NCBI GenBank assembly: GCA_910584685.1
Contig: CAJUAO010000011.1
Span: 22,300 to 86,299 of the forward strand
Direction: 5' to 3'
Source of the DNA: an uncultured Lachnospiraceae bacterium
GTDB lineage: Bacteria > Bacillota > Clostridia > Lachnospirales > Lachnospiraceae
Length of the DNA: 64,000 bases
The translations under genes were made by a program, and so were the position numbers. This document shows, piece by piece, positions 1 through 27,643 of the stretch; position 1 is the stretch's first letter, and every line of letters starts with the position of its first letter. A model generated the notes under the pieces. The model ran no database searches and was not told where the DNA came from. It worked only from the letters and a program-made list of their open reading frames with translations.

Positions 1-10
1 AGGAAGACAA

Positions 11-811
11 ATGCAAACAGCTTTAAAATTAACAGATGATATACCGGCATCTCAAAGTGCAGGCTCTCGTTTACAAAGATATTTGAATCAAAAATCTTTG
101 CATCCATATTTATATAAAAATGAAGATAAAAATAAATATAGTCCTATTATATGCTATAAAGGCAACACACAGATAAATGGATATAAAGCTACTGATTTAG
201 TTGATTTATGTGATGGTTTTTTAGAAGCAAGAAAAAATATAGCTTTATCATCAAGACAAAAAATCATTGCAGACCAAGCAGAAATTTTAATGCGTAGTTT
301 TGCTAAAGTAGGTATAATTTCTTTAATTGATGAAGCAACAGGTTATCAGTATGAACGTGAGGCTGATACACTTCAAAGACTTTTGAGATTATACATTAGT
401 GAAGAATTACTTCCTTGGCAAAAAACATTTCCTGATATATATTATAAGGAATTATTTCGATTAAACGGTTGGGACTTTACCGAAAAAGGTATTTCAAAAA
501 GACCAAGTGTAATTGGAACATGGACTAATAAATTAATTTATGATGAATTACCAGACGGTATAGCTGAAGAATTAAAAAAGAAAGTTCCGACTAGTAAAAG
601 TGGTAATAAACTTGCACGATACTTTCAGTTTTTAACCGATGATTATGGAAGTCCTCATTTAAAAGCACAAATTAACAAGATTATAACTATTTTCAATATG
701 TCTGATAATATGGAAGATATGTGGAAAAATTTTGAAAAAGCTAAAAGCAGGCAAATGAATTATTTAGAATCACCTTATAAATTTGATGAAAACGGACATA
801 CTGTCGAATAA
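11..811 (+). CDS. P63C-domain-like phage protein
   Basis: 266-aa ORF with AGGAAG upstream. The central LIDEATGYQYERE segment resembles the phage P63C domain as I recall it. It is convergent with the tail operon. Confidence 0.45.
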   Translation: MQTALKLTDDIPASQSAGSRLQRYLNQKSLHPYLYKNEDKNKYSPIICYKGNTQINGYKATDLVDLCDGFLEARKNIALSSRQKIIADQAEILMRSFAKVGIISLIDEATGYQYEREADTLQRLLRLYISEELLPWQKTFPDIYYKELFRLNGWDFTEKGISKRPSVIGTWTNKLIYDELPDGIAEELKKKVPTSKSGNKLARYFQFLTDDYGSPHLKAQINKIITIFNMSDNMEDMWKNFEKAKSRQMNYLESPYKFDENGHTVE

Positions 812-1043
812 GGTGAAGATTTGTCAGAGGCACCACCAATTAATATGGTGAAGTAAAAAGTTATGCCTGAAAGTAGCACACAAAGCAAAGATGATAAAGA
901 ATAACAGGATATTATGCTCTGTTTTCTTTATACCATTCTTCAGTTATATTCTTTAAATCATCAAAATGAATACAAATACTACTATAACAATTCAGTCTTC
1001 AACAAGTAATATTTATGATATTAGACATTTGCAGGTATAGATT

Positions 1044-1289
1044 TTATGAATCAAGACCAGAATTAACGTCTCTGCCGGTTATTCTTTTATAGTCTGCAAC
1101 AGTTAATATAGTGCCAAAATATTCTAATGAATTAATTGTATCTGTAAATAATTCTTTGGCTTGTCTTATTGTCAAGCCGTTTTCTTTTATAAAAAATAAT
1201 AATTCACTCTGAAGTTCGTCTTTCCTGTCGTTAGTGCAGTTTCTAAATTCTCCTTGAAATAAGTTCTGAAATAAGTTTATTTCTTTCAT
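1044..1289 (-). CDS. Hypothetical small protein (81 aa)
   Basis: ORF with GGAGG RBS 7 nt upstream of the ATG (minus strand). No recognisable motif. Confidence 0.5.
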   Translation of the reverse strand: MKEINLFQNLFQGEFRNCTNDRKDELQSELLFFIKENGLTIRQAKELFTDTINSLEYFGTILTVADYKRITGRDVNSGLDS

Positions 1290-1460
1290 TTTTTAACCTC
1301 CATATATTTGTGTAGTTTATAATCACTGTAATAAAATGTTATGTTTATAAATTTTTCTGTAAAGAAAGTTTTACCGAAGAATTATGATTTAACGGATATT
1401 CTCCTATGTAGAACTTTGTTTGTCTATGCTGCTATTTGAAACTTAAAAAATAATTTAGTG

Positions 1461-1503
1461 AATAATAATAAAACACCACCATACAAGTGGATGTACAGTG
1501 GCG
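1461..1503 (-). terminator. Putative rho-independent terminator after the lipoprotein genes
   Basis: On the minus strand, CGCCAC (1503-1498) pairs with GUGGUG (1479-1474), with one G.U pair, followed by UUUUAUUAUUAUU. Confidence 0.4.
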
Positions 1504-1519
1504 TTTTTTGTGTTTAAAT

Positions 1520-2275
1520 TCATTGTTTTAATTGAGAGTTTGGAAATTCTATAACTATAGTAAAATCATCACTAGGAATACGTTTGGTGTGAAGAAAATG
1601 CCCATTGCTAACCTTATAATCATTTTCTATATGAGAATGAGAGAATGTGATAGTTCCAGTTTCAATGCAATCATCATTAGAATTATAAATATTATATATA
1701 CAATATGGTGATATAAATTCTGTAGAAGATATATTAATATCAAATTCTATTGCACAATAACCATCATAACCAATAGAATGAAAACTATGCTCTATAGAAT
1801 TAATTGTAAATTCTATGTCATTATCAGAATATTTCTCACCCTTATTTACTCCTTTTACTGTTAAAGTAGGATTAGGATATTCTTCAATAGGTGTAGTAGT
1901 TTCAGTAGGTCTAGGTGTAGTAGTCTCAGCAGGTGTAGTTTGAACAGGTACAGGTGTAGAATTAACTGATGTTACAATAGTAGTTTGCTGAACTTCTGCC
2001 TGAGTTTGTTGCTGTTCAGTAATATTTTCGGTGTTATCTATAACTTCCTTTTCAGATTCAGAAATTAACTCAGTGGTATCTTCTTCAGTTGTAATTTCCA
2101 CAGTAGTGCTTGTAATATCACTCGATGTATCTTCCACAAAAGTAGTAATAGTAGCAGTACTCTTCCTTTCAGCCTTTAATGTATTAGTATCATCAATCTT
2201 ATTTGAACACGCAGATAGGACTATAGGTAATATAGCTGTTACGACATATATGTAAGTTTTAATATTTTTCCTCAT
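1520..2275 (-). CDS. Phage-encoded lipoprotein, paralog 1
   Basis: Signal peptide with lipobox ILSAC|S. T/E/P-rich linker, then a ~110-aa C-terminal domain. AGGAG RBS. The N-terminus is near-identical to the neighbouring ORF. Confidence 0.8.
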   Translation of the reverse strand: MRKNIKTYIYVVTAILPIVLSACSNKIDDTNTLKAERKSTATITTFVEDTSSDITSTTVEITTEEDTTELISESEKEVIDNTENITEQQQTQAEVQQTTIVTSVNSTPVPVQTTPAETTTPRPTETTTPIEEYPNPTLTVKGVNKGEKYSDNDIEFTINSIEHSFHSIGYDGYCAIEFDINISSTEFISPYCIYNIYNSNDDCIETGTITFSHSHIENDYKVSNGHFLHTKRIPSDDFTIVIEFPNSQLKQ

Positions 2276-2324: not shown

Positions 2325-3116
2325 TTATTCATAATTTGAAAAAACTATAGTGTATTCATCGGGTGGTAAGTCGTTTACAAAAAAACTTGCACTAGCCGTT
2401 TTTGATGTACTTGTTTGATAATAAAAATTAACAGCCCCAGTTGTAACACAAATACTATCAGAATTATAAATGCTATATTTACAATGAACAGGTGAATAAT
2501 TTTCTAAAATTGATATTTTTACTTGAAGCTGAAGTTTTATTTTTGAAAAGTATCCATTAATAGGATAGCTTTCATCAAGAATAGCATAATTTGCGGAATC
2601 TATTGTAAATATATTCGTATAACCATTTTCATCATTGTAAATATATTTTTCACCAACTCCCTTTATTACAAAACTTGGATTTTTATATTCTTCAGGTGTA
2701 GTAGTTTCAGTAGGAATAGATGTGTCGGTAGGAATAGGTGTAGTCGTTGTAGTTGGCATAGGTGTAGTTTGAACAACTGGTTGCTCATTATTTTGAATAG
2801 GTACAGGTGTAGAATTAACTGGTATTACAGTAGTAGTTTGTTGAGTATCAGCCTGAGTTTCCTGCTGTGAAGTAATAGTATCTTGACTATTCAAAGTATC
2901 TTGTTCAGTATCATAAATCAACTCAGTCGTATCTTTCTCAATTGTAGTTTCTACAGTGGTGTTCGTAATATTGGATTTATTTTCCAACAAAGTTGCTTTA
3001 TTTTGTTTTACATCCTTTAATGTATTATTAGCATCAGTTTTATTTGAACATGCGGATAAAATTATAGGCAATATAGCTGTTATAACATATATACATGTTT
3101 TAATATCTTTCCTCAT
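2325..3116 (-). CDS. Phage-encoded lipoprotein, paralog 2
   Basis: Same MRK.IKT.IYV.TAILPI.LSACSNK leader and VNSTPVP linker as 1520-2275. The C-terminal domain is diverged, with shared KGV..GEKY...IYNS..C..TG....TIV pattern. Confidence 0.8.
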   Translation of the reverse strand: MRKDIKTCIYVITAILPIILSACSNKTDANNTLKDVKQNKATLLENKSNITNTTVETTIEKDTTELIYDTEQDTLNSQDTITSQQETQADTQQTTTVIPVNSTPVPIQNNEQPVVQTTPMPTTTTTPIPTDTSIPTETTTPEEYKNPSFVIKGVGEKYIYNDENGYTNIFTIDSANYAILDESYPINGYFSKIKLQLQVKISILENYSPVHCKYSIYNSDSICVTTGAVNFYYQTSTSKTASASFFVNDLPPDEYTIVFSNYE

Positions 3117-3213: not shown

Positions 3214-6200
3214 TTATGCAGTATATTTATTTATAGTCTCATTTAAATATTGAATCTCTTTATCCATTGCCTGTATTTTTTTTATAAGTAATACTGTAAG
3301 TTTTGAATAGTCTATTGCCTCACAATTTCCATCTCTGTCGTGAGTAACTACATATGGATATATTTTTTCCATTTCTTCAGCTATTAAGCCATATTGATTT
3401 TTATAACCGATATTTGGCTTATAATCAAATGATACAGGTCTGATTTTAGAAAAATTATCAATAAAATCATCAGATAATGTTTTTATATTTTCCTTGTATC
3501 TTATAGATGAAGCATTGACAAATGACCTTGCACAGCAATCTCCTGTATAAGCATCCATATAGAAACAATTTTGAGAGTCAAAACCGTTTGAAGTGTGAGG
3601 TACAATATAAAATCGAGATTGCTCATCATATCGAAGATAAATTTTTCTGTCATAATTATTATGTAAAATTACATTTGAAGCATTATTGCTTGTAAGGACT
3701 TCAATATTTCCTTTACATTTAATATAATCTCCTATTGATAAATTACCTGTATTAGTAATTGAACTTGTTGTTATGTTATTAAAAACTCCATTTCCACTTG
3801 AATTAACATAATAGTTTCCATATGAACCAAATTGTATTGTTTCTTCAAACCTTATAGTACTTGTTACGCTGCTTGCAGATATATGAACAGCATAAACATT
3901 ATAAGTGAATAATGTATCAACTCCACCACTACCAACTTCCCAATATGAACTAATAAGATTTGCACCTAAATTTGTGTCATAATAGCTTGTATATATAAAC
4001 ATGGAATCATCTTTAGTTGGAACTTTTAGTCCTACATTCCATTTGACAGTTGAGGATTGGATATAGTTGCATTCAAGAGCTAAATTGTTTATATTCCATC
4101 CACCAATTTTACCTTTTTCAGCATTAATAGTACCTGATATATTAGCATTTTGTGAATATAGTTCCCCATTATTCTTTATGTAAGTTATATCATTACCCTC
4201 TTTATCCTTAACAAAAAATGCAACATTATTAGCATATTTAGAAGACTGTAACCCTATAATTCCCGCTTCTGTTTCTGTATACAAACACTGACCTAATCCA
4301 TATCCTGATGGTTTACCTATACTCCACTTACCAATAGTCCCACCAGTAGCAGTGATATTATCAGTAGAAATTGTCCCCGTAATATTTGCCCCTTTAGCAG
4401 TTAATATACCCTTCGTTATATTCGTATAAGCATCAGACGATGCATACTGCCTGATACCATTTGTCCCCAAATAAATACCGGCAGTTGTAGAAGTTAAGGA
4501 ACTTGTACCGTTATAAATCGAAGAACTTCCTATGGTAAATCCTCCAATGCTTCCGCTGGTAGCAGTAATCCTCCCCGAAACCTCCAACACATTACCCAAA
4601 GAATCATACCTAAGCCTCCCACCTGCAAAAGAAAAATCACCGCTATTCAAATCAATATGCGTCCCAGCAGGGGAAGCTCCGTCAGAAGAATAATTCCCAG
4701 AATAAACATTCCCCCCGACAATATCATTCCCCATCAAAATCCCCGACACAACAGCATCCGCAATAAGACCATACCGTGATACATTTTCCCTTAAAACAGG
4801 ATTATAAAACTCAATCCTCCCAAGAGCCGCCTTGGCAGTCTTCCAGTAATCATCAGTATAAACAAGACAGTTATTAGAAAATTTAACCTGTTCCGGCAGA
4901 TAACCACCGGAAATATCATCCCACTGTCTTCCCGTAATCCCATGCTCATCAATTACAAACTCCTGATTTATGCTGCTTGAAATATTATAAAGGGCAGCAT
5001 TTAACCCGTCATTTCTTATGGTATCAAGCTCCGTAAAGCCTTTTGCCCCCTGCTTAGCCTGATGAGCCACATAGCTGAAACTGGCAGCCATGGTTTTAAC
5101 ACTGTCCATAAGGCTTTTAGCGTCATTCAGTCCGTTATAGGTTTCAGTTACGTCAGAAAATTCCACCTCAATATTCTGTATCCGGGAAAAATCAATACAA
5201 TAATGAATTAACCTGAGCCTGTATATTTTATCATCCAGCTTAATCCTAATCCAGTTTCCACCCTCAAACATACCTGTCAGCTTCTTAAATTCAGGTATCG
5301 CCAAAAGGTTAAACATGGCTGCCGACAGGGACAACTGCAAGGTGGAAGCAGTAACGGCATCAAGCCTTGCCTTGTCAAGCAGTTCCTGCGCCTTTTCAAT
5401 TAATTCCTTGCTGTTTAAGCCGTCAGATATATAATTGCTGTTTTCAAAGGAATCCTCCCGTCTGAAAGAACACAATTCCCTCCATAATTCTTTTCCAAGG
5501 AAATTTTCAAGATTAAGGTAATCTGTTATTTCACCCTGCGCTTTTTCCAGTTCACATAACTTTTTATCAACAGCCTCAAGCTCAGATGCTCTCACCTTTA
5601 TTTCAGCCTGAATGGCAGTAAGCTTATTATAATAAGGCAGGTATAAATCATGATAAATATCTCCATAAATAGTATTATTTGCACAATTATTATCAATCAT
5701 GATGTCAATAACAGACTGATAAGCAGATTCAAAGGAATTAAGCCTGTTTAAGCAGTACTTCTTTAACTCTGCCTTAAAGACATTTAACTCCGTTTTAACG
5801 TCAAATATGTCAACTAAATAAATATCGTCCCTGTCAATTTTTTTTCTGATGCTCTGCTCAATCTGACAGGCATAGTCGTCATTAATTGTAAGGGTAACAT
5901 ACCCTGTATTTTCAGCAGTATCATTTTCATCACTGTAATTAGTCAGCCTGAACTTACCCTTCCATGTCTGGCTTACAAAGGAAGTACTGTCCTCAATAAG
6001 CTCAATTCTATATACAGTACTGTTTACAATACATTTTGCCATTCCAAGAACGGCATTATTAACCGTATAAACAGAAGCAATGCTTACATCCTGTACGGCA
6101 ACGGGATTCATGTTTGCCGCTGTTAATTTTGCCAGTTCCTTTTCAGCGTTGGTTTCAGCTGTTTCAATATCAGGCATCATGGCAGATTCCAACTGTAACT

Positions 6201-7212
6201 GCCTGTCAATGGTATCATATAATTCAGCCATGATACTTTGATAATCAGGGGTAAGCCTGTCATACTCCTTAAAATAATCCTCTAATTTTACACGCAGTTC
6301 CCCGGACATATCCTCCTTATCCCTGTCTGAAAAAGCGTATATATACTGTGTTCCTGTGGGATTACATGCGGAAATGGCAGCATTAATAATTTCATCTCCC
6401 CCTGAAACCTTAATATAGTTTTTAACCTCATCCTGTTTACTGGATAAAGAAATGCTTTCTGCCAGAGTTTCGGAATCAACGAAAATAGTAGTATCATTTC
6501 CATATCCGTAATTCAAATCCTTACTGCCGCATTCAGGACATATATCCGTATAGTCACCACGATAGCCGCAGTGGTTGCAGTTGGTTTTTAAATCATAAAC
6601 TGATATGCTCCTGTCTGTTGAATCAAACAGGAAAAGACAGCCGGTTTCCTCAGCAATTTCTCCTGTTAAGGCATCATATACGGTTGTACCGTCAATACTG
6701 AACATTCTCTGTATGCTCCACAGGGTAGCGTCCACATGCTTAATGGTGTAATTGGGAACTGCTTTAAGCAGCCTGTGAAGAAGGGATTCACTTGGATTTG
6801 AGGGCTTGTAAAATATGGTTGGATTTTTGTAATCATCTCTTGCAATATCATCTTCTGTGTTGATTTCTGTGGATTTAATATATATCTGGCTTAGCTCAGC
6901 TTCGCATAGGGAGGTTGCCGTTACCTCCTTTGAAACACCGTTTTTATCGTTTATTACAACATCAATCTGAAACCATTCGTTAAATTCCTTCAAATAAACA
7001 AGCCTTCTGTCCTTTATTTCTTCCCACAAGCGTTCCTTCTCATAATTAAGCTCCTTATAGACAGTGAAATTAATAGTATCAGCGGACATAAGGTTATAGT
7101 CGTATGTAAGATTATCAATGTTTACAATGGAGCCAAGCTTATCATAATTTCTTTTGCCGAGAATAATTTCCGGCATTTCAACGTTATTGTTTAAATCAAA
7201 CTCAAGGCGCAT
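3214..7212 (-). CDS. Tail-associated/tail fibre protein (Tal-like N-terminus, C-terminal S74 intramolecular chaperone domain)
   Basis: 1332 aa, directly after Dit. The N-terminus resembles the phage minor structural protein N-terminal region. G/S/T/N-rich repeats in the distal part. The last ~100 aa (SSIRYKENI...GLIAEEMEKIYPYVV...IDYSKLTVLLIKKIQ) match the peptidase S74 chaperone pattern. Confidence 0.85.
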   Translation of the reverse strand: MRLEFDLNNNVEMPEIILGKRNYDKLGSIVNIDNLTYDYNLMSADTINFTVYKELNYEKERLWEEIKDRRLVYLKEFNEWFQIDVVINDKNGVSKEVTATSLCEAELSQIYIKSTEINTEDDIARDDYKNPTIFYKPSNPSESLLHRLLKAVPNYTIKHVDATLWSIQRMFSIDGTTVYDALTGEIAEETGCLFLFDSTDRSISVYDLKTNCNHCGYRGDYTDICPECGSKDLNYGYGNDTTIFVDSETLAESISLSSKQDEVKNYIKVSGGDEIINAAISACNPTGTQYIYAFSDRDKEDMSGELRVKLEDYFKEYDRLTPDYQSIMAELYDTIDRQLQLESAMMPDIETAETNAEKELAKLTAANMNPVAVQDVSIASVYTVNNAVLGMAKCIVNSTVYRIELIEDSTSFVSQTWKGKFRLTNYSDENDTAENTGYVTLTINDDYACQIEQSIRKKIDRDDIYLVDIFDVKTELNVFKAELKKYCLNRLNSFESAYQSVIDIMIDNNCANNTIYGDIYHDLYLPYYNKLTAIQAEIKVRASELEAVDKKLCELEKAQGEITDYLNLENFLGKELWRELCSFRREDSFENSNYISDGLNSKELIEKAQELLDKARLDAVTASTLQLSLSAAMFNLLAIPEFKKLTGMFEGGNWIRIKLDDKIYRLRLIHYCIDFSRIQNIEVEFSDVTETYNGLNDAKSLMDSVKTMAASFSYVAHQAKQGAKGFTELDTIRNDGLNAALYNISSSINQEFVIDEHGITGRQWDDISGGYLPEQVKFSNNCLVYTDDYWKTAKAALGRIEFYNPVLRENVSRYGLIADAVVSGILMGNDIVGGNVYSGNYSSDGASPAGTHIDLNSGDFSFAGGRLRYDSLGNVLEVSGRITATSGSIGGFTIGSSSIYNGTSSLTSTTAGIYLGTNGIRQYASSDAYTNITKGILTAKGANITGTISTDNITATGGTIGKWSIGKPSGYGLGQCLYTETEAGIIGLQSSKYANNVAFFVKDKEGNDITYIKNNGELYSQNANISGTINAEKGKIGGWNINNLALECNYIQSSTVKWNVGLKVPTKDDSMFIYTSYYDTNLGANLISSYWEVGSGGVDTLFTYNVYAVHISASSVTSTIRFEETIQFGSYGNYYVNSSGNGVFNNITTSSITNTGNLSIGDYIKCKGNIEVLTSNNASNVILHNNYDRKIYLRYDEQSRFYIVPHTSNGFDSQNCFYMDAYTGDCCARSFVNASSIRYKENIKTLSDDFIDNFSKIRPVSFDYKPNIGYKNQYGLIAEEMEKIYPYVVTHDRDGNCEAIDYSKLTVLLIKKIQAMDKEIQYLNETINKYTA

Positions 7213-8031
7213 TTATCCTAATCCCACCTTTCTTACCGACTCGTATTCAATGCGTATTTCACATGGAAGGGAGGTAGTAATTATATTTAGATTGTCTTCA
7301 TATCTGTTTCCAAGCCTGAAATAGTTGTAATTAAAGTCATTGTATAATTTATGTGTTGGAACGGAAGTCTCAATAACTTTATGATTTCCGTCTATAGTTA
7401 TAACCTCATCCTTTACACAGTTCCTGATTTCTGTAGTTCTGTTTTCAATTGAATTGTGTATTGTTAAATTACCGCTTGCCAAGCACTTGCAGATAAATAC
7501 TTTTGGATATATATGACCTGTTTCATTGGACATATTAAAGATGCTAAAGTCTGAAGAAGCAGTAGTAGTAAAATCAAGGCTTACATCCTCATAACCATAA
7601 GGGCTGTCTGTTACAAAGGTTAGTTCAAGACCATATATTTCCCCGCCAATCTTTAGCTGACTGATGTTATTGAAGCTTCCCATAAAGAAAGTATCTTCAA
7701 ATCCTTTCTGATACAGCTTGAATTTATGGTATCCGTCTCTTCTTGCTAACCAGCGGAGCAAAGAGGTAAGTTCTTCAGGAGAGATAAACCTGTATTCAGG
7801 ATTATGGCAATCCATCTTGCAGATTTGAAATGCTGCGCTTAAAGGCTCGTCATAAGTAGCAGCAGACAGATAGTTTCTATCGGAAATACTTGTTTTTATA
7901 GTGTTGAAGGTCAGATTATTTCCTATAGACACGGTTTCAGAGGAATTACTGTCAAATTTACATAAAATCATTCCATAGTCTGATAGTTTTTCATTGTCAT
8001 ACAGGAAGTTTGTTGCTGTGTTTGGTATCAT
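7213..8031 (-). CDS. Distal tail protein (Dit-like)
   Basis: 272 aa, located between the tape measure gene and Tal, which is the canonical siphovirus order. Its stop abuts the Tal start. Confidence 0.65.
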   Translation of the reverse strand: MIPNTATNFLYDNEKLSDYGMILCKFDSNSSETVSIGNNLTFNTIKTSISDRNYLSAATYDEPLSAAFQICKMDCHNPEYRFISPEELTSLLRWLARRDGYHKFKLYQKGFEDTFFMGSFNNISQLKIGGEIYGLELTFVTDSPYGYEDVSLDFTTTASSDFSIFNMSNETGHIYPKVFICKCLASGNLTIHNSIENRTTEIRNCVKDEVITIDGNHKVIETSVPTHKLYNDFNYNYFRLGNRYEDNLNIITTSLPCEIRIEYESVRKVGLG

Positions 8032-8225: not shown

Positions 8226-11200
8226 CTATCTTGTATGCCTGAGCTTATCCAAAGGAGTTCCTTTACCTGTTAATGCGTGGTTAATAGAAGTAAACACAGC
8301 TTTTTCAAATGTATTGTCTTTTATTAACTGATTTCTGAAACCTGAATAATCTGTTACGTTTGGAAGCTCAAGATTTACATTTATATCACCAACATTAACC
8401 TGTGAGGACTGACTGTTTGCCATACTGCCAAAATCCGGAACAGAAAAATTAAATGTCGGCTTTGGTATCGTAGCAGTAATACTCGCCGGGTCTATGTTAT
8501 ACTTCTTCATATAAGTTTCCGGATTCTGTGAAAGCTCCCACAGTCTCCTTGAGGACTCATTGTCAAACACCATATCACCGGAACTTAAAGGCGTAAGCAC
8601 TGCTCCGTCAGCGGTACGGTATATAATCTCCTCCCCGTCCTCCTGTGTCCAGTGATAACCCCTGGCTGCATTTGAAGTTCCTGACTTGTAGCCGTTTGAT
8701 TTAAGGTAATTTAACAGCTTGGTATTCTGTGAAGGGCTGCCTGTGTAAGCGCCGCCGAATATTTTACTCCAATACATGGCACGGGCAGAGAATGAGCTGT
8801 CCTTGTCATAGTATTTAAGCCTGTCTACAACACTTGTGTCTATATTTAATGAGTTTTTCGGATAGTAGTCCTTTTTGCTTATTAGTATACTGTCAAGCAA
8901 TGACTTGCCTGTTTTTGAAGTATTAGACGAAGATGATATAGAACTTGGATTAATTGGGTTTGAGTTTGATACAGGATTATTGATTGTATTTTTATTGCCG
9001 TTTCCTGTATTGGTATTTGGGGTATTAACAGCAGGATTAATTATAGGATTATAAGGATTAGTTGATGAGCCTGTGTTATGATTTCCATTGCTGTTGGCAG
9101 CAATATTTGAGCCTGCATTGGTTTTACTTTCATCTGCATTTACAAGATTTGCAACATGTGATACCAGATTATTTATAGCGGTTGTTGTTCCTGCAATAGA
9201 GGTGCTTACCCCGCCTAACCCGCTGTTAAGGGAATTTGATACATTGCTTAATCCGCCTTTTAATTCGCCTGTAAGAGATTGGGTGAAAGGACTGTCAGAG
9301 CTAAATATGGTGCTTAAGGAATCGCTGATAAATGTTCCATAGTATTCGCTTGTTTCCTTTAATGTAGTATTTATTGTATCGCCCTGTGATGATATCTGGC
9401 TTATTATCTGTGCTATCAGCTCGTCTGAATGGTCTAAACGCTCATTCATCCAATTCTCATAGTCTTCGGCTAACTGGTCAAGCATTGTTTCCGTGTCGCT
9501 TAAATACTGCTCGTATTCGCTTTCCTTTAAATCTGCCTTGGCTTCTTCAAGCTGTACACGTATCTGCTGGATTTTTGACATGGCTTCCTCGGAGGTATCG
9601 CCTTCATAAGCAAGCTTTTGCTTTTCAAGGGAGGAAATGTTGTCTGTCTTTTCAGCTATGCTCTTTTGATAGTCGTATAGGTTTTTTTCTGCATTAAGCT
9701 GTTCTTTTTTCTTGTCAATGAGCCTTTGTAATGCGTCTAACTGCGCATTGTAGCCGTCTTCTATAAGGTCTAGGATTGACTGTTTTTCATCCTCGGCGGC
9801 AAGAACGGCATCCTGATGGGCTTTAACCATTTCATTGTACTGGGCTAAAACTTCATCTCCTGCGCCGTTTATAAGCTGCTTTTGTAAGTCCTGAACTTCC
9901 TCGTAGTAATCCTGTGCCTGTTGTTTGTATACGTCATAAGCAGCGGCATGTAACGCCATGGAGGCAGTACCATAGTTGGTTATCTGTCCGTTTTCATCAA
10001 ATAGGTGTTTCTTTGACAGCAGCTCAACGTAATAATCTGTTTCTTCTGTAATACGGTTAAGGGATTCTTCTAAATACTCAAAGATTTCCCAGTTTAGGTC
10101 ACGTATGGTATTGTTGAAGTCAACGAGGTTGTTTGTCATGGAGTCAATTTCTTTATCTATGTCCATGAGGGTTGAGTACATGTCATTCCATTCGGCAGTT
10201 CCCTGCTTGTGCAGGGTGTTGTTTAGTATACTCTGTAGCTGTGTACGCTCGTTTTTAAGGGTGTCAAGATGTTTTTGAGTATACTCAATCATGCCGTTGT
10301 AGTAGCTTTCGTTGGCAAACTGTCCCTTTAATTCCAGCAGGTCGACTTTGTTTTGGATTGTCTGCAGAGCGTGCTCCAGGATGGAGGTGTCAAAGTCGAA
10401 GGCTTCCTTTAGATTGTCGAATTGGAGCTTGTCAATATTTTTTAATGCAGTTTCAGCATCTAAAATCTGACTGTCGAGGGTGTCAAGCTGTGATATAAGA
10501 TTATACCATTGTTCGGTATGCTGCTGTATATCAGAAGAATTGAGATTGTTTTGTAAAGCATTGCGTTGGGCTTGCAATTTGTTTACTATATCAGCCTGTT
10601 TGCTTCTGAGGGTATCATAGTTACCTGATGAGGAGAGAAGTGTTATCTGGTTTTCTAAAAGGTCGTATGCTGACTGCATACGGTTTATAACAGCGTCATA
10701 CTCTGATTTAATGTTGTCAAACTTTTGTGTGTTAAGCTGATTTAGCTCTGAATTTAAATCCTGCTGTGTTTTAAGACATTCCTGTGCTTTTTCATACCAG
10801 GTCTGATAATCACTGATTTTGTCTTTAATTATTTTGTCTTCAGGCGTTTCATCCAGAATAATGCCGATGTCAATGGCACCTTTTTGCACAAGTGTTTTAT
10901 ATGGTTCGGGTAATCCGACAGAGTCAGCTTTCTGCATATATCTTGTATATGCCTGTGACTGTAATTCTATGGCATCCTTTGTTTTGGATATGGCGTTTGC
11001 AAGCTCAGTATTGCGTTTTGTCCATGATGAATAGGTGTTGTTGGCTTTAGCTTTTATTGTGTCTAAGGCTTCATTTAGTCTCTTGATTTTTGTTTCTATC
11101 CAATCGTAGGTTTGGGAGGTGTCTTTGTCAGGGGATAAGGAAGAAGGGGATTTAGGAGTACCGGTATATGAAGCAAAATTTATCTTACTGCCAATAATGG

Positions 11201-17416: not shown

Positions 17417-17725
17417 TTATGTTTTGTTCATCTGCTTTAGGGCAGCCTCAAGCAGCACGCGAATTTGCTCATCTGTAATAAATTCTTTTTTAGAGTTAAA
17501 CATTTTGTCAATGAAGGTTATGACGTATTCGCGTTTTTCTTCACCAGATTTAGGAGCGTTAAAAAGCATTTCCGCAGCTTCCGCTGCCTTGGTAATCCAT
17601 TTAGAAGCCTCGTCAAGCTTTGCAGAAGATATTTTTGTTTTTATGTATGGAATAATATAGCCTGTGATAATTGCGCCAATCAAAGGAATAAGTGTTAAAA
17701 TTATTTTATATAAGTTGTCATTCAT
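17417..17725 (-). CDS. Holin (LL-H-type pattern)
   Basis: 102 aa with an N-terminal TM helix and a charged tail. It lies directly downstream of the amidase and resembles LL-H family holins as I recall them. Confidence 0.65.
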   Translation of the reverse strand: MNDNLYKIILTLIPLIGAIITGYIIPYIKTKISSAKLDEASKWITKAAEAAEMLFNAPKSGEEKREYVITFIDKMFNSKKEFITDEQIRVLLEAALKQMNKT

Positions 17726-18983: not shown

Positions 18984-19193
18984 TTAATTTAAGGTTTTCC
19001 AGTAATTCCATGCCTTTTCGGTTTCCGGCTTATAATAGTAGGCAATTAATTTTCCCTCATAGCCCTCGTCAATCCATACAGGCTGACATTTCATAACTGC
19101 ATACATTACAATCTGTTTAATATTGCACAGCTTAATCAGATTATCCTCGCCATAAACCTCTTTGACATCATCAAGGGTTTTACATTTTAACAA
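18984..19193 (-). CDS. Hypothetical small protein (69 aa)
   Basis: TTG start with AAGGTGGAG RBS 8 nt upstream. It is the first gene after two terminators. Confidence 0.5.
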   Translation of the reverse strand: MLKCKTLDDVKEVYGEDNLIKLCNIKQIVMYAVMKCQPVWIDEGYEGKLIAYYYKPETEKAWNYWKTLN

Positions 19194-19408: not shown

Positions 19409-20140
19409 TTATTCCTCAATAAGAACTAAATCAAGGATATTGTCGTCGCTGTCAGCCATAAGGTCGCAGGTTATTGTTACAGAGCCCGGGTCACCATTGT
19501 TTGAAAAGCTGAGTGAGAGATTACTCTGAGGCGCTGCCTTATATGCAGTAAGCTTATATGGAAGGACCTCGTCATCCTCTGTCTTCATAACAGTGTCGCC
19601 GTAAACGATAAAGTTCTTAGGGAAACTTGTAGACTTAATATTGATTCTCTGAGCCTTATCAGCAACCTCCTGCATGTAGTAAACGATTACCTTATCGCCG
19701 CCTGTAAGAGCAGAAGTAAGGGTAATAGTCTTGTCAGCAACAGTGCATGGAAGCTCTGTTCCGCAGTCGTCATCTGCCTTATAGACAACAACAGAGCCTG
19801 AAACTGGAACATCGTCTATAGCAATAACAGTGCCGTCATCATTTACAGACTTTTCAACCCTTGTCACAAACCTTGCAGACTTAGAAACCTCACCGCCTGT
19901 AATAAGCTGCCATAATTTCACGGTCTGAATCTGTGTTTCAATAGTAAGCGTACCAGCTCTTTCGCCGCTAAACTGAATTTTCTTAGGATGTCCCTGACCG
20001 CCGTAAGCAAATACAGACTCACCTATTAATTCAGTTGTAGTTACGTTAGCAAAGTCTAAGTTTAAAAAAGGTTTCTTTGTAGAATAATCTACGAAAATAA
20101 GGTCACAGACCTCTCTGTTAGCCATGTTTGGATTTGACAT
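19409..20140 (-). CDS. Putative major tail (tube) protein
   Basis: ATG at 20140 is preceded by AAGGAGGAA. 243 aa, beta-rich. It is followed by strong terminators, which is typical of a highly expressed structural gene. No motif-level proof. Confidence 0.5.
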   Translation of the reverse strand: MSNPNMANREVCDLIFVDYSTKKPFLNLDFANVTTTELIGESVFAYGGQGHPKKIQFSGERAGTLTIETQIQTVKLWQLITGGEVSKSARFVTRVEKSVNDDGTVIAIDDVPVSGSVVVYKADDDCGTELPCTVADKTITLTSALTGGDKVIVYYMQEVADKAQRINIKSTSFPKNFIVYGDTVMKTEDDEVLPYKLTAYKAAPQSNLSLSFSNNGDPGSVTITCDLMADSDDNILDLVLIEE

Positions 20141-20207: not shown

Positions 20208-21002
20208 TTAATTACCGTTATCTGTTCTTTTAAACCATGAGGCCGCGTCAAACTGGTTGTCCTTGTTTCCCCATGCGGCGACGCTCATGGACTGGATATT
20301 GTATATATTGTTGCTTGAAAGCCTTTGAAAGCAGTCCCAAACCTGATATACCGTTAAATCCCATATATTTAAAATGTTAAGGGACTGGCTTTTGTTTGCA
20401 ACGGCAGAAATAATATTTCCAAGCTCCATATTTTTATCTGCCTTAGTATGTTTAGCTTTTTCGTCTCTTCCTTTTTGAAGCTTTTTCATTATTTCAACAG
20501 CTTTCCGGTTTTTTGCCTTTGATAAATCGTCCTGCTGACTGGATTTAATAAAATTTCGCTGACATATTATGTCACAGACCTGTGGGTATGTTTCCCTGGA
20601 AATGCTGCCTACAGCTGAGGCTTCCTCTGATATTTCTCCATTATGGGGTACAGGCGTGTTTTTTTTAACAAGGAAACATTTATGCTCAACAGAGTAAGCA
20701 ACCTCCTCCTTAATAAAAAAGTTTAGTACAGCCTGTAACAATTTTATTGAATCACTGTTTAAGGTAAGCAAATCATATATGCTTATTTGAGCCTTTTCAG
20801 TTTCTGTCAGCAATTCGGCCTGTTCAGGCTTTCCAATCATAGTAAAATATGTTTTTAAGTCCATCAGCAGGACGGACAGATAATATTGATATATATTTAT
20901 ACCAATAGAAGCTATATCCTTTAATTTAGGCGATATAACGCCAATGGCCTTTTGTATATATACAGGCTCAGGCGACAACAGTTCAAAGTAGCTAATCTTC
21001 AA
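20208..21002 (-). CDS. Hypothetical phage structural/assembly protein
   Basis: ORF frame 20208-21065. The likely start is TTG at 21002, overlapping the upstream stop (TTGA) and preceded by AGGTGG. The start is uncertain. Confidence 0.5.
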   Translation of the reverse strand: MKISYFELLSPEPVYIQKAIGVISPKLKDIASIGINIYQYYLSVLLMDLKTYFTMIGKPEQAELLTETEKAQISIYDLLTLNSDSIKLLQAVLNFFIKEEVAYSVEHKCFLVKKNTPVPHNGEISEEASAVGSISRETYPQVCDIICQRNFIKSSQQDDLSKAKNRKAVEIMKKLQKGRDEKAKHTKADKNMELGNIISAVANKSQSLNILNIWDLTVYQVWDCFQRLSSNNIYNIQSMSVAAWGNKDNQFDAASWFKRTDNGN

Positions 21003-21532
21003 AGAACCACCTGCCTTCCGTGATTTTTGCGTCTTAGGAATGTCTGATATGTGTAGGAAAGACACTTTCCGTAGAAGCTTTTGTCGGGAATATACGGTTT
21101 AACAGGATTCTCCTTTGCCAAAAGCATATTGCCAATAGAATATTTTTCCTTTATCATATCAAGAGCGCTTTGATTAAGAACAGTTGAATTAATTACCTGA
21201 ATGGCGCTGTCAACTCTGTTTCCGAATACGCCGATAGAATTAAAGTAATTTTTATCCTCATCAGAAAGACTTAAGGCATCCTTGCGGCATACTGCCATAA
21301 TATCAACTCCGACCTCTTTAATATGCTGGTTTTCTACCTTTGTTAAATATGTTTCAATAAAAACGGCAAAGTCCTTATCAGACAATGCTCCATCTATATA
21401 TGGAGTGTCGAAGCAATGCTCCATATCAGGCATAATCAACCGGACAATATCAGCCGTATCTAAAAAGAGAGCTTTTAGGCTGTCCTTTATTCTGCTCATA
21501 TCGGAGAGCGAATCATAATATTTTTCTGACAT
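20999..21532 (-). CDS. Hypothetical phage protein (177 aa; possible tail completion/terminator by position)
   Basis: AGGAGGAA RBS. It lies between the HU-like gene and the tail genes. No motif recognised. Confidence 0.5.
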   Translation of the reverse strand: MSEKYYDSLSDMSRIKDSLKALFLDTADIVRLIMPDMEHCFDTPYIDGALSDKDFAVFIETYLTKVENQHIKEVGVDIMAVCRKDALSLSDEDKNYFNSIGVFGNRVDSAIQVINSTVLNQSALDMIKEKYSIGNMLLAKENPVKPYIPDKSFYGKCLSYTYQTFLRRKNHGRQVVL

Positions 21533-21568: not shown

Positions 21569-21907
21569 CTAACTATTAAAATATCCGTTAAGCCTTCTGT
21601 TATAGTACCTTGTAATTTTTGGCCTTGCCCATATTTTAGGGGAGGTTTCAAATAATTCTCCTGTTTCGGGATGTATCATTTTCTTTTCACCCTTATATGA
21701 ACAGTCAATGCTGATTCCGTTAAAAAGCTTTAAGGAAACCTTATCAACGGAGGAAGCTAAAGAAAGCAGCTCAAAGATATAATTTTCCAGCGTCAGGTAC
21801 ACAGATTGGGCTACGGGAAGGGGAATGCCTTCACGTATGGCGATTTCTTTTATTATTTGTTCCTTATTTATTACCGTATAAAACACCTCCTGCATGTATG
21901 CTTCCAT
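21569..21907 (-). CDS. HU/IHF-like DNA-binding protein (YonN-like position)
   Basis: ~110 aa. INKEQIIKEIAIREG resembles the HU N-terminal helix, and HPETGELFETSPKIWARPKI resembles the HU beta-arm (NP.TGE..I.A......F). It sits directly downstream of the YonO-like gene. Confidence 0.6.
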   Translation of the reverse strand: MEAYMQEVFYTVINKEQIIKEIAIREGIPLPVAQSVYLTLENYIFELLSLASSVDKVSLKLFNGISIDCSYKGEKKMIHPETGELFETSPKIWARPKITRYYNRRLNGYFNS

Positions 21908-24795: not shown

Positions 24796-25368
24796 TTAAG
24801 CTTTAAGCCATACCTCCCAATATCCGTCGCAATATCTTGTTTTTAAGGTATCATAATGAAATTTCAAAAGCTCCGTAATCTGATAAATATAATAGCAGTA
24901 ATCTGTCTGTCCGCTGCGAATGTTATTTAAAACGTCATTAATATATGAGCAATAGGACTGCCAGTTTGTCTGTCCGTGAAATTCACCCATTGTTTCATTA
25001 TTCCACATACCTGACTCTCTTGAAAATTTACCGCCAAGCTTTTTAACCTCCTTTCTGTACGGAGTGACAAACATTTTTCTAAGAAGAAACTCTTGCTGCC
25101 ATTTTTCGTCGGTAAGGGAAGTAGAAGGTCTTCCGTCAGTATTTGAGATTAATCTCATTTCCCTTAATTCCTCCAAGGTAATATTCCTATATTTTTCTTT
25201 CATTTTTTTCTCCCTTTCTAATGTATTTTGCAGATTAACTGCATCTGCCTGATTATTTATTCTCTTTTTGTTTGGTGAATTAGTACTGAAATCATCTAAA
25301 TCAATCTCGCCTCCAAAAGAAGAATGTGACCTGTTATATGCTCCTGTTTTGTAAAATAATGTTGTCAT
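24796..25368 (-). CDS. Hypothetical protein (190 aa), first gene of the minus-strand operon
   Basis: AAAGGAGAAAAA RBS. No motif recognised. Confidence 0.55.
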   Translation of the reverse strand: MTTLFYKTGAYNRSHSSFGGEIDLDDFSTNSPNKKRINNQADAVNLQNTLEREKKMKEKYRNITLEELREMRLISNTDGRPSTSLTDEKWQQEFLLRKMFVTPYRKEVKKLGGKFSRESGMWNNETMGEFHGQTNWQSYCSYINDVLNNIRSGQTDYCYYIYQITELLKFHYDTLKTRYCDGYWEVWLKA

Positions 25369-25584: not shown

Positions 25585-25593
25585 GAAAAATGG

Positions 25594-25622
25594 TTGACAA
25601 GAACGCATGTTCGTGATATATT
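25594..25622 (+). promoter_or_regulatory. SigmaA-type promoter of the sigma-factor/DUF262 operon
   Basis: -35 TTGACA (25594-25599), 17-nt spacer, TG-extended -10 TGaTATATT (25614-25622). Confidence 0.75.
25600..25613. promoter_or_regulatory. LexA (Cheo/SOS) box 2, inside the promoter spacer
   Basis: AGAACGCATGTTCG matches GAAC-N4-GTTC, with 13 of 14 positions agreeing with the full consensus. It occupies the -35/-10 spacer. Confidence 0.75.
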
Positions 25623-25664
25623 AAAAAAACACAAAAGAAAAAAATATAAGGAAGGTACTTTAAA

Positions 25665-26222
25665 TTGGAAGAAATATTGGAACTTTATTATGCAGACAAT
25701 GCCCGGAAACTGCACAATATGGTAGACACTGTTTTACGGAGGCTTGGATTTTATTGCATAGGAAATATTGAAGATTTCTATTCCCTTGCAAATGAGGTTT
25801 TTGCTGACGTAATAGTAAAATATGACGAGGGACGGGACTTTGACGCTTTTTTACACACATGTCTTTCAAACAGGTTTAAGACGGAAATGACTGCAAGAAA
25901 CAGGCAGAAAAGACTGGCTGACAAAATGGCGGTGTCAATTTATACGTCTGTTAATGATGACGATAATTCTACATTAGGTGATATTATTCCAGACAGCTTT
26001 AGTATTGAAAAGGAAATTTTTGAAAAGAGGGAGGAGGTATTAAACGAAAGAATACTGCTATATTTAAACAGACTTTCAAATCTTCAAAGAGAGGTGCTAA
26101 GACTTAATGCGTCGGGATATTTGCCTAATGAGATTAAGGAGAAGCTGCATATAACCGAAAAGCAGTATTCAGACTGCAATGCGGCAATTCACTCATATAA
26201 GAATGTATCGGTATTATTTTAA
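25665..26222 (+). CDS. Small sigma-70 family factor (TcdR/UviA/Xpf-like)
   Basis: 185 aa with TTG start after AAGGAAGG. Region-2-like FDAFLHTCLSNRFKTEMTARNRQKR. Region-4 HTH LQREVLRLNASGYLPNEIKEKLHITEKQYSDCNAAI. Confidence 0.7.
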   Translation: MEEILELYYADNARKLHNMVDTVLRRLGFYCIGNIEDFYSLANEVFADVIVKYDEGRDFDAFLHTCLSNRFKTEMTARNRQKRLADKMAVSIYTSVNDDDNSTLGDIIPDSFSIEKEIFEKREEVLNERILLYLNRLSNLQREVLRLNASGYLPNEIKEKLHITEKQYSDCNAAIHSYKNVSVLF

Positions 26223-26247
26223 CAAAAGAAGAAAGAGGTGTTTAAGG

Positions 26248-27630
26248 ATGGCAAGACCACGAAAACAAACCTATACTATGGAAATGTACTTAGACAAGAT
26301 AAGAGACGGCGATATATGCAATGATGCAGACGTTCAAAGAAATTTTGTGTGGAATAACGAGCAGATTAATGAATTAATAGTTACAGTGCTTACAGACGAT
26401 TATATTCCGCCTATTATTCTTGGGGAAGAAAATAATTCACAGCTTCATATTGCAGACGGAGGCTGTCGAAGCGCAGCATTAAGCAGATTCAGATACGGAA
26501 ATTATAAAATTACGTCAGCTATTGAGGATTCGATTATTACCTATAAGAAAAAGGTTAAGACTGACAACAGTAAAATTATATGGGAGGACGCCGTATTTGA
26601 TATTAAAAATAAAACATATGAAAAGCTGCCGGACGAGCTGAAAAAGAAGTTTGACGAATATCAGATAGAGACTGTTATCCATGAAAACTGCGACAGATAC
26701 AAAATATCAAAATATATTAAAAGGTATAACAATCATGTTTCAATGAACACAAACCAGAAGGCGTTTACATATCTGTATAATTTTGCCGGATATGTACGGC
26801 AGATTTTAGACAGCAGGTTTTTTCTTGACTACAGCAGCTATACGGAGACAGAAAAAACAAAGGGTATGGCTGAGAGAATAATCGTTGAAACCATTATGTG
26901 TACAAATTATCTGGATAATTGGAAAAAACAGACGAAGGAAATTTGCAAGTTTTTGAATAAGAATGGAACAAACGCAGAGTTTGAAAGGTTTGCTGATAAT
27001 ATCCACAGGCTGGAAAATATAATTACTGATGAGACTAAGGACATATTTAACAGCAAGGATTCCTTTATTTTTCTGACTTTGTTTGACAGATTTACTGAAT
27101 TAAAGGTTGATGATGCAAGATTTGCAGATTTCCTTAAGGAATTTAAGAATAATCTGCGACTGGTTAAAGCTAATGATAAGGGGCTGTTGTTTGACCAGAT
27201 TGATAAGGACAAAGGAACTAAGGATAAGGCGGTTATTATTGCAAAATTAGATATGCTTGAAGGCTTAATGCTGGAATTTTTACATTATAAGGATAAACCG
27301 GATAATCATGCTTCCGGCAATGACAGCGTAGAATTATTTATATTGGAAAATGTAAAGATAGATAAAAAAACACTGCAAAAGGATATGGATTTGTATCTGG
27401 ATACATTAGAGGGCAGCTATGGGCTAAAGGAAAAATGTATAAGAGTCGGCTCAAGGCTCCTTGATGAGAGAAACAGACCTTCCCTTCTTGCAATGGTTGC
27501 CTATTCATATAAGACAGGTCAGGATTTGGATGACTGGCTGACTGAATATGCAAAAAATCACAAAACATATATTGCAGACCAAAAAAAGAATTACTTACAT
27601 ATGTTAAATGATTTTAAAAGATATCAATAA
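26248..27630 (+). CDS. DUF262 (ParB/GmrSD N-terminal-like) domain protein without recognisable nuclease domain
   Basis: ATG at 26248 after GAAAGAGG. DVQRNFVWNNEQINELIVTVL...IPPIIL...IADGGCRSAAL matches the DUF262 QR..vW...LI.S....P.i...DGqQR pattern. No DUF1524/HNH His-motif is seen in the C-terminal 300 aa. Confidence 0.7.
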   Translation: MARPRKQTYTMEMYLDKIRDGDICNDADVQRNFVWNNEQINELIVTVLTDDYIPPIILGEENNSQLHIADGGCRSAALSRFRYGNYKITSAIEDSIITYKKKVKTDNSKIIWEDAVFDIKNKTYEKLPDELKKKFDEYQIETVIHENCDRYKISKYIKRYNNHVSMNTNQKAFTYLYNFAGYVRQILDSRFFLDYSSYTETEKTKGMAERIIVETIMCTNYLDNWKKQTKEICKFLNKNGTNAEFERFADNIHRLENIITDETKDIFNSKDSFIFLTLFDRFTELKVDDARFADFLKEFKNNLRLVKANDKGLLFDQIDKDKGTKDKAVIIAKLDMLEGLMLEFLHYKDKPDNHASGNDSVELFILENVKIDKKTLQKDMDLYLDTLEGSYGLKEKCIRVGSRLLDERNRPSLLAMVAYSYKTGQDLDDWLTEYAKNHKTYIADQKKNYLHMLNDFKRYQ

Positions 27631-27643
27631 GGTTAATCCTTTG

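Follow-up and report, generated by a model that had tools for sequence, protein, structure and literature searches.

F-type tailocins are encoded by headless, non-contractile phage tail clusters. They include the monocins of Listeria monocytogenes, the efagins of Enterococcus faecalis, and the F-pyocins of Pseudomonas. To our knowledge, tailocins have been described in few Gram-positive lineages (monocins, diffocins, efagins, and PBSX-like particles), and none comes from Lachnospiraceae or from an SPbeta-type ancestor. SPbeta, the ancestor type in question here, is a siphovirus. The locus described here lies in a 64-kb stretch of DNA (the window) from an uncultured Lachnospiraceae bacterium (GCA_910584685.1, contig CAJUAO010000011.1). 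It carries a ~32-kb chromosomally fixed element that is best read as a domesticated, headless derivative of an SPbeta-like siphovirus, probably an F-type tailocin released by lysis. A probability of roughly 0.6 is given to this reading, and the element is most likely an SPbeta-type tailocin of a kind not yet described.

Efagins and monocins have a known gene organization and are independent lineages without an RNA polymerase (RNAP) of their own (PMC12713668). In SPbeta, the RNAP YonO carries out transcription of the late genes as a single operon that starts downstream of yonN (PMC5467207). YonO-like genes were also noted in the 'main genomes' of Firmicutes, where their role was left open (Forrest et al. 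2017, PMC5467207). In a full-text literature search, no paper connected tailocins with YonO, and those that connect them with Lachnospiraceae do so only in passing. Few papers contain both 'tailocin' and 'SPbeta', and by title and abstract none appears to describe such an element.

The SPbeta genes that matter here follow the order yonO, yonN, yonK, yonJ, yonG, terminase yonF, portal yonE, yonD, yonC, capsid yonB, connectors, yomW, yomV, yomU, tape-measure protein (TMP) gene yomI, yomH, yomG, and lysis genes. In the window, a co-oriented array of open reading frames (ORFs) runs on the minus strand from 25368 down to 1044, with two genes divergent from it. Genes were called from ORFs with Pfam, PHROG, and NCBIfam matches and precomputed Pfam annotation. 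The features are as follows, from the divergent genes leftward.

26179..27630, plus strand: DUF262/GmrSD_N (ParB-like) protein; GmrSD_N E 4e-8, PADLOC NsnA E 7e-12
25665..26222, plus strand: sigma-70-family factor, divergent, 185 aa; matches are given with the regulation below
24796..25368, minus strand: 190-aa protein, first gene of the RNAP operon; also upstream of the RNAP gene in L102 (76 %), L104 (64 %), and phages L025/L028
22009..24780, minus strand: YonO-like single-subunit (two-barrel) DNA-dependent RNAP, 923 aa; phrog_8308 E 3e-242
21569..21907, minus strand: HU/YonN-like DNA-binding protein; Bac_DNA_binding E 5e-3 (weak), SPbeta YonN E 2.7e-3
20999..21532, minus strand: YomW-like protein, 177 aa; the L104 orthologue has a weak PF27256 YomW match, and the position is that of YomW in L103
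20208..21002, minus strand: YomV-like protein, 264 aa; PF27211 YomV_2nd, phrog_4051 E 2.5e-36
19409..20140, minus strand: tail tube of the YomU family, 243 aa; PF27173 YomU_Tube, phrog_2729 E 5e-48, SPbeta YomU E 1.6e-5
18984..19193, minus strand: conserved 69-aa ORF; 90 % identity to L104, 39 % to phage L103
17753..18967, minus strand: endolysin, N-acetylmuramoyl-L-alanine amidase; Amidase_2 E 3e-22
17417..17725, minus strand: holin; Phage_holin_6_1 E 3e-17 (Holin_LLH)
16833..17396, minus strand: membrane-anchored coiled-coil protein, 187 aa; N-terminal hydrophobic segment, then coiled coil
16436..16813, minus strand: chaperone-like ORF, 125 aa, named for its position upstream of the TMP gene
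16072..16422, minus strand: chaperone-like ORF, 116 aa, likewise named for its position; 49 % identical in L104
14718..16049, minus strand: TMP, proximal ORF, 443 aa; PhageMin_Tail E 3e-14, phrog_4211 positions 550-945
8226..13541, minus strand: TMP, distal ORF, 1771 aa; phrog_4211 positions 974-1660
7213..8031, minus strand: Dit; DUF6558 N and C domains E 3e-42 and 4e-33, PHROG Dit, SPbeta YomH E 1.6e-6
3214..7212, minus strand: Tal/tail-tip fibre, 1332 aa, with a C-terminal intramolecular chaperone domain; Peptidase_S74 E 7e-12
2325..3116, minus strand: lipoprotein, 263 aa, paralogue of the next; lipobox LSAC, weak PHROG lipoprotein match
1520..2275, minus strand: lipoprotein, 251 aa; lipobox ..ILPIVLSAC, 45 % identical to the neighbouring lipoprotein
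1044..1289, minus strand: 81-aa ORF, called as a gene in all contigs; no family match in Pfam or PHROG
1..811, plus strand: 3' part of a P63C-domain gene (full protein 301 aa); Pfam P63C E 3e-30, full gene at L009 11465-12370

This array holds a complete siphovirus-type tail set, composed of YomU_Tube, TMP, the chaperone-position ORFs, Dit, and Tal with its S74 domain, together with two further fibre genes that lie left of the window. It also holds its own lysis cassette, the Amidase_2 endolysin and the Holin_LLH holin. An earlier sequence-only reading had proposed a tail-and-lysis operon in this order, and all of its gene classes are present on the minus strand. Two ORF lengths, 285 and 280 aa, are start-codon artefacts and should be 264 and 243 aa. 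The 280-aa ORF (243 aa corrected) was considered as a capsid because PHROG labels it 'head and packaging', and was rejected since its family is the YomU tube. No ORF matches a sheath family in Pfam or PHROG, in keeping with a non-contractile tail.

The RNAP is 46 % identical to SPbeta YonO and 50 % identical to its homologue in Clostridium botulinum phage D-1873, and it carries the DxDGD motif (FDVDGD). Tal has PHROG minor tail and tail fibre matches, resembles SPbeta YomG (E 1.7e-3), and is 64 % identical to the Tal of L133. The distal TMP ORF has a peptidase match (phrog_2307) at residues 1563-1623, a cell-wall peptidase-like segment. L099, L103, and L104 have tube proteins 84-85 % identical to this one, and the YomW-like protein is 53-60 % identical in L102, L104, and L099. 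The YomV-like protein would be a tail-proximal structural or assembly protein. Its AlphaFold2 model (29-sequence alignment, predicted local distance difference test score 64) has no Foldseek match in the PDB below E 1, and PDB sequence searches with the tube, YomV-like, and 177-aa proteins found nothing. The terminator and completion proteins may be among YomV and YomW. The 116-aa and 125-aa chaperone-position ORFs have no family match in Pfam, PHROG, or NCBIfam. The 187-aa coiled-coil protein has a homologue in the true phage L103 (34 % identical) and is possibly a lysis accessory protein, and the 251-aa lipoprotein is a candidate self-immunity or exclusion factor.

The head is what is missing. 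No terminase, portal, protease, scaffold, or capsid family, and no SPbeta head protein, is matched in the element (Pfam, PHROG, phmmer), which upholds the same statement in the sequence-only reading. Integrase, recombinase, and replication families also have no matches within the element (Pfam, PHROG), and megablast of window positions 1-25000 against phage records returned nothing. Among the traits of an SPbeta-like phage, the element retains a YonO-type RNAP with a YonN-like HU protein heading a late operon. What it lacks is the head and packaging module, the integrase, early, replication, and lysogeny genes, and the ~125-135 kb genome.

True SPbeta-like phages place this loss precisely. An RNAP scan of IMG/VR gave 80 loci at 37-58 % identity, and a tblastn map shows that about 75 of the 80 have HU, YonJ, YonN, YonG, and terminase(-portal) genes within 10 kb downstream of the RNAP gene. 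Phage L103 (143 kb) has a YomV 67 % identical and a tube 84 % identical to those of the element, and upstream of its YomW-YomV-YomU genes it carries YonG_N, terminase, portal, YonD_N, and YonB. The window has 36 bp between the HU-like and YomW-like genes, and the packaging, head, and connector block is absent exactly there. An HU-like gene after the RNAP gene is also found in many SPbeta-like phages. A holin gene placed between tube and TMP is likewise present in true phages of the group, and so is an interrupted TMP gene; both are ancestral traits of that group rather than signs of decay.

The same layout without head genes is found in at least seven diverged loci (L023, L099, L102, L104, L122, L126, and L128), of which L122, L126, and L128 were found by a metagenome scan with a DUF262 alignment. 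Four of the seven read as follows.

L023 (IMG/VR): DUF262, sigma, then divergently RNAP, HU, two unknowns, endolysin, holin, TMP1
L102: MCP (methyl-accepting chemotaxis protein), sugar-binding protein, DUF262, sigma, then divergently the 190-aa protein, RNAP, HU, YomW-like, YomV (YomV 72 % identical)
L104: PrkC, PP2C, DUF262, sigma, then a 187-aa protein, RNAP, HU, YomW, YomV, YomU onward to TMP1, antisense ORFs, TMP2
L099: host ABC and two-component genes, divergent RNAP (22 % identical, DxDGD kept), YomW-like, YomV, YomU, endolysin, holin, TMP1, TMP2

L099, L102, and L104 have the same HU-YomW junction as the window. The distal end of L133 (TMP2, Dit, Tal, fibre) abuts rlmN-rsmB-fmt, and that of L151 abuts an ABC substrate-binding gene. 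DUF262 is adjacent to the sigma gene in L023, L102, L104, L121, L122, L126, and L128, at 58-85 % identity. The two genes overlap at the end of the sigma gene and are paired in all sigma-bearing headless elements, and the DUF262 gene has a dN/dS (ratio of nonsynonymous to synonymous divergence) of 0.055 against L102. In L099, positions 612-8610 are without sigma, DUF262, and LexA boxes and adjoin lantibiotic-immunity-type ABC genes (Spa1_C) and a two-component system. This context suggests a different induction signal or an independent loss of the head.

L102 is at the same chromosomal locus in a sister species, L121 is also at this locus, and other family members are at other loci. Between the window and L102, element proteins are 60-83 % identical and host-flank proteins 88-91 % (MCP 91 %, sugar-binding protein 88 %). 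By the Nei-Gojobori method, the element genes have a dS of 0.9-1.6, compared with 1.0 for the flanking host gene, and a dN/dS of 0.05-0.21. These values agree with purifying selection on an element that diverged along with its host. In the collection, 106 blocks index the identical RNAP protein, and 21 of the 24 longest contigs read have the layout of the window.

On the right, the DNA is cellular from 27608, with genes for a sugar-binding protein, MCP, iron-containing alcohol dehydrogenase (Fe-ADH), BrkB, and the rimP-nusA-ylxR-L7Ae-infB cluster, so that this end abuts host genes as first described. The left flank was read on L009, a 111-kb metagenome contig found by an exact match to the 251-aa lipoprotein. 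Because L009 is 100 % identical to window positions 1-12275, it stands in for the source genome, and it reaches 8.5 kb past the left window edge. The plus-strand gene at 11-811 had been taken as the end of the element; it is a P63C gene cut by the window edge, and the element extends ~4.6 kb further left. Leftward on L009 come P63C, a 104-aa, and a 43-aa gene on the opposite strand, followed on the operon strand by genes for 780-aa and 309-aa proteins. The latter two have tail-fibre and minor-tail PHROG matches and a DUF4376 domain. Directly past the last fibre gene is a tRNA-Glu(CTC) gene (L009 17135-17207, ~4.9 kb left of the window start), and then ThiF, HTH-AIRS (PurM-like), DUF3021, and LytTR genes. 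The element is thus ~32 kb long, from ~4.6 kb left of the window to 27630, headless, and with host DNA on both sides.

The tRNA-Glu(CTC) gene is probably the ancestral integration site. A comparison of the element ends for att-type direct repeats gave only common A/T 11-mers and none that match the tRNA end. More than 8000 proteins annotated as Lachnospiraceae are related to the HTH-AIRS protein at 82 % identity or above. It sits in non-phage contexts, and a search for an empty site through its homologues gave variable accessory contexts and no empty site. As a separate observation, this HTH_3-PurM-like (AIRS/AIRS_C) fusion at L009 18202-19452 is 82-99 % conserved, yet its neighbourhoods vary and hold restriction-modification genes, toxin-antitoxin genes, and insertion sequences.

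P63C and the 104-aa and 43-aa genes make up a three-gene opposite-strand cassette that stands between the Tal and lipoprotein genes on one side and the distal fibre genes on the other. In the unrelated phage contexts L004 and L005 (an Acetatifactor metagenome-assembled genome, or MAG, and a 'Tenericutes' MAG), the P63C gene is 94-95 % identical, and a P63C protein scan of genome contigs found only unrelated phage contexts. From this, the cassette looks like a recently exchanged moron. In L133, a fibre of the 780-aa type follows directly after Tal, so the lipoproteins and the P63C cassette are insertions in one tail module. Several assemblies break at or near P63C (window 1-811; L009 11465-13137; L004, L005, and L006).

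Regulation of the element would start in the 296-bp divergent region. It contains two Cheo (LexA) boxes, CGAACTGTTGTTCG (25571-84) and AGAACGCATGTTCG (25600-13), which are the only sites with at most one mismatch in 64 kb. In a promoter scan, the second box is inside a near-consensus TTGACA-17-TG-TATATT promoter (25594-25622, plus strand), 43 nt upstream of the sigma gene, with the -35 on one side of the box and the extended -10 on the other. Paired LexA boxes 28-32 bp apart are found in the same intergenic region of L102 and L104, making three elements with the window. Across regions 2 and 4, the sigma factor matches two kinds of NCBIfam model, sigma70-ECF (E 3e-7) and SigH-like, below their curated cut-offs, and it also matches a PHROG sigma factor family (E 3e-7); its L104 orthologue has a faint Sigma70_r4_2 match. 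The proposed step from LexA to sigma gains support from these conserved boxes over the sigma promoter, to which LexA would bind.

In the window, L102, L104, and L023, the ribosome-binding site of the 190-aa/RNAP operon has the exact 12-mer AATGTAGAAATA (25414-25425, minus strand) 35-60 nt upstream of it. Several copies are upstream of the RNAP gene in the true phages L020 and L029. AATGTAGAAATA is a candidate promoter element that the sigma factor of the element may serve. The further steps, from sigma to RNAP and from RNAP to the late genes, are putative. Neither a sigma nor a DUF262 gene turned up within 10 kb of the RNAP gene of true phages, and direct wiring to the SOS response may for this reason be part of domestication.

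The TMP gene is in two parts, which map to contiguous parts of one profile (phrog_4211). The proposed structure is as follows.

14778..16049, minus strand: proposed TMP exon 1, ending ..GIKNIG; as annotated, the ORF extends to a stop at 14718
13539..14777, minus strand: intervening sequence of 1.24 kb, a candidate self-splicing (group I-like) intron
8226..13538, minus strand: proposed TMP exon 2, beginning AUA UUU AAA = IFK...
13619..13942, plus strand: antisense zinc-ribbon ORF, 107 aa, adjoining the 3' junction; 34 % identical (E 2e-17) to its L099 equivalent

The sequence-only reading had given the element an intron, which stays a candidate: P1/P10-type pairing is conserved, and a group I match in Rfam is not found. 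Joining AACAUUGGU to AUAUUUAAA across 14778/13538 would give an in-frame ..GIKNIG/IFKTIT.., where the slash marks the junction. In TMP1 homologues of L023, L099, L137, and L140, similarity ends right after ..KN(I/V)G or ..KGLG, and the uninterrupted homologue in L150 reads ..DYG ITQL.. (..G/I..) across the same point. No Shine-Dalgarno sequence precedes the annotated ATG of TMP2, the N-terminus MIFKTIT is kept in L099, and the G of this ATG precedes exon 2 (terminal-G geometry).

A guide-like motif, UGUUU(U/G)(U/G)GAAUAU-GCC(GAC), is found 30-50 nt into the intervening sequence and is read in different frames in different loci. Its 3' part pairs with the last six bases of exon 1 in L099 and L137 (GUCGGU/GCCGAC, a 6-bp P1 with a U.G junction). 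A P10-type pairing joins the guide (14746-14733) to the start of exon 2 (13538-13525) over 14 bp, and over 13 bp in L099 with a U.G/C-G difference. The RNA fold of the intervening sequence is better than that of shuffled sequences (z = -4.56). Positions 14385-14325 may resemble the Tetrahymena core. Between the intervening sequences of different loci, nhmmer and blastn found no homology beyond the guide motif, and RNAalifold on four loci gave no usable consensus. In phage records, neither the intervening sequence (blastn) nor the spliced junction (tblastn) matched anything, and a core 16-mer scan in IMG/VR gave chance matches only. A transposon with terminal inverted repeats was rejected, as the right 'repeat' belongs to coding sequence that is conserved, and in L099 and L137 the left one also pairs with the end of exon 1. 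Splicing of the TMP mRNA is plausible, though unproven.

The intervening sequences of relatives reach more than 4 kb and hold several genes in both orientations. The TMP gap is a cargo hotspot across the family (window 13542-14717, L099 14608-16562, L104 14522-17278, L133 1-4855, L151 1-4138, L137 3223-6225). Its cargo includes a choline-binding ORF with a zinc-ribbon ORF (L099), 3-5 antisense paralogues of ~180 aa (L104, L133), an S24 repressor-like gene with an AAA_15/DUF4435 pair (L151), and a DUF262-like ORF (L137). L149 and L150 also have the C-terminal domain of the zinc-ribbon ORF. A perfect 30-bp tandem duplication (CTTTGAAATGTATGTTTATATAATTGTATA x2, plus strand) occupies positions 14652-14711, within the intervening sequence and a short way downstream of where TMP1 stops as annotated.

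As an F-type tailocin, the element would work in six steps. DNA damage would inactivate LexA on the two Cheo boxes over the sigma promoter, where the sites are read directly and the binding is predicted. The sigma factor would then direct host RNAP to the AATGTAGAAATA promoter of the 190-aa/RNAP operon. Homology and gene order suggest that the YonO-like RNAP would transcribe the genes for the HU-like protein, YomW/YomV, tube, endolysin-holin, chaperones, TMP, Dit, Tal, and fibres. The TMP mRNA would probably be joined over the 1.24-kb sequence to encode a protein of ~2190 aa, and since tail length follows from this joined protein, a tail of ~330 nm like that of SPbeta would be expected. Holin and amidase would lyse the producer. 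Tal and the fibres would bind cells, and killing may follow from insertion of the TMP with its cell-wall peptidase; more speculatively, the lipoproteins may protect kin.

Several points weigh against a functional tailocin. The left flank was read as far as LytTR, with 13.8 kb of contig further left, which leaves a small probability of a head module elsewhere in the genome. The distal fibre genes are cut off from Tal by the opposite-strand P63C cassette. No function is assigned to YomV, YomW, or the 190-aa protein. Purifying selection could partly predate the loss of the head. In the window, P1 is weak, with only GGU/GCC plus GAA/UUC. Rfam RF00028 (group I) gives no match at E <= 10 on 1351 nt, on 346 nt, or in six relatives, in a search where the SPbeta bnrdE and bnrdF introns, as positive controls, score 92 and 42 bits. 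If the TMP RNA were not joined, tail assembly could fail, and a ~330 nm tail far exceeds those of known F-type tailocins. L121 (Neotoma stephensi cecum metagenome, 44-1445) has the same locus (MCP, sugar-binding protein, DUF262, sigma, 190 aa), and in it RNAP residue 140 is fused to Tal residue 1261. In 3 of the 24 contigs, a mobile element sits within the HU-like gene (window ~21819). This insertion (L016/L017/L018 12800-22772) carries three consecutive large serine recombinases, a PemK toxin, DUF6870, and Lactamase_B, and it comes to lie between the RNAP gene and the late genes. Because of the L121 deletion and this insertion, the element is dispensable and can decay.

Such decay is the substance of the strongest rival, a cryptic SPbeta-like prophage remnant in which the head module was deleted and the rest drifts neutrally without a functional product. 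The further large deletion at the same locus in L121, the mobile element in the HU-like gene, the foreign P63C cassette, and a TMP interruption of no recognized intron family are all what a remnant could look like. That interruption is also found in true phages, however, and all long ORFs of the element (1771, 1332, and 923 aa) are intact. Neutral drift would also have to keep one headless gene set across at least seven diverged loci, conserve the LexA boxes and the 12-mer, and yield a dN/dS of 0.05-0.21 over a dS of ~1 that equals that of the host flank. A remnant is judged unlikely.

A complete phage with its head and packaging genes elsewhere, beyond LytTR or at a second locus after, for example, a rearrangement, would suit the large size of SPbeta-like phages and the stretch of contig past LytTR. 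The sequence-only reading had itself raised a head module left of the window, and in the 8.5 kb that it adds, L009 answers it with fibres, tRNA-Glu, and host genes, and no such module. On the left, the flank is a tRNA-Glu followed by four non-phage genes, and on the right it consists of housekeeping genes. True relatives keep their head genes between HU and YomW, the very place where the two genes are 36 bp apart here and where L099, L102, and L104 share the junction; L133 and L151 meet host genes at their distal ends. Head genes elsewhere are quite improbable. A tail donor or helper-dependent element, a mirror image of capsid-forming phage-inducible chromosomal islands whose tails would be joined to capsids of a co-resident phage or satellite, is of a type of which we know no example and is highly improbable, since for all that a tube 84-85 % identical to that of L103 would in principle let related heads dock and the SPbeta head-tail joining region (YomW and YomV) is retained, no packaging signal, integrase, or replication function is seen, inheritance is vertical at a fixed locus, and direct LexA control with an own lysis cassette fits autonomous release.

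The domesticated, headless F-type tailocin is the preferred reading. The sequence-only reading had suggested it, and the suggestion has gained from the left flank, the recurrent headless layout, purifying selection, and the heads kept by close phages. The genes are those expected of an F-type tailocin, and the element is a candidate whose killing activity is predicted. A wider proposal is held tentatively, at clearly less than even odds. It is that of a family of SPbeta-derived F-type tailocins in Lachnospiraceae and gut Clostridia, in which the YonO RNAP is under a LexA-sigma relay and the TMP mRNA is matured over a sequence that Rfam does not recognize and that doubles as a hotspot for cargo, including defence genes. 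This would explain orphan chromosomal YonO.

One observation concerns the right flank alone. Between the MCP and Fe-ADH genes, window positions 30963-31286 hold ~325 bp with an 84 % match to their own reverse complement, an imperfect long palindrome.

If the preferred reading is true, a widespread, SOS-triggered, strain-specific killing particle would bear on strain competition in the gut and on the engineering of narrow-spectrum antibacterials. It would offer an answer for the orphan YonO-like RNAPs of Firmicutes main genomes (PMC5467207). A three-tier cascade of LexA, sigma, and a minimal RNAP on a ~25-kb operon would be a test system for promoter recognition by YonO. The interrupted TMP gene, with guide-like pairing and no recognized ribozyme family, is a lead for RNA biology whichever way the question of a divergent group I intron is settled.

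Compared with the SPbeta late region, the element has the RNAP, HU-like YonN, YomW/YomV/YomU, YomI, YomH, and YomG homologues in the same order. Unlike SPbeta, it is without the equivalents of yonK to yomX (exonuclease, YonG, YonF, YonE, YonD, YonC, YonB, and connectors) and without integrase, early, and lysogeny genes, in 32 kb as against 134 kb. Its lysis genes come after the tube gene and before the TMP gene, and LexA and sigma would control it directly.

The gut SPbeta-like phages of Clostridia and Lachnospiraceae (L103 and L137 from IMG/VR and metagenomes; D-1873) share the holin position with the element. The TMP gene of L137 is interrupted at ..KNVG with the same guide-like motif, and phages L020 and L029 also have AATGTAGAAATA upstream of their RNAP genes. 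These phages differ in being contigs of 70-160 kb with a full head module.

The PBSX/skin-type Bacillus prophages are domesticated, SOS-inducible, phage-derived killing particles whose late genes need a sigma-like factor (Xpf), as may hold for the element. PBSX is contractile, has heads that package host DNA, and has no phage RNAP, and its proteins are unrelated to those of the element.

The closest match in kind is the F-type tailocins. Monocins, efagins, F-pyocins, and the element have in common a headless, non-contractile tail cluster, a holin-lysin pair, a fixed locus, and no integrase or packaging genes, and stress-linked regulation is predicted for the element as well. The known systems descend from TP901-1/A118-like or lambda-like phages, whereas the element has SPbeta-like ancestry. 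Its TMP would have ~2190 aa, for a predicted tail of ~330 nm as against ~100-160 nm, and is encoded by a gene interrupted by a cargo-bearing sequence. To the F-type plan, the element adds its own YonO-type RNAP, an HU-like protein, and a dedicated sigma factor.

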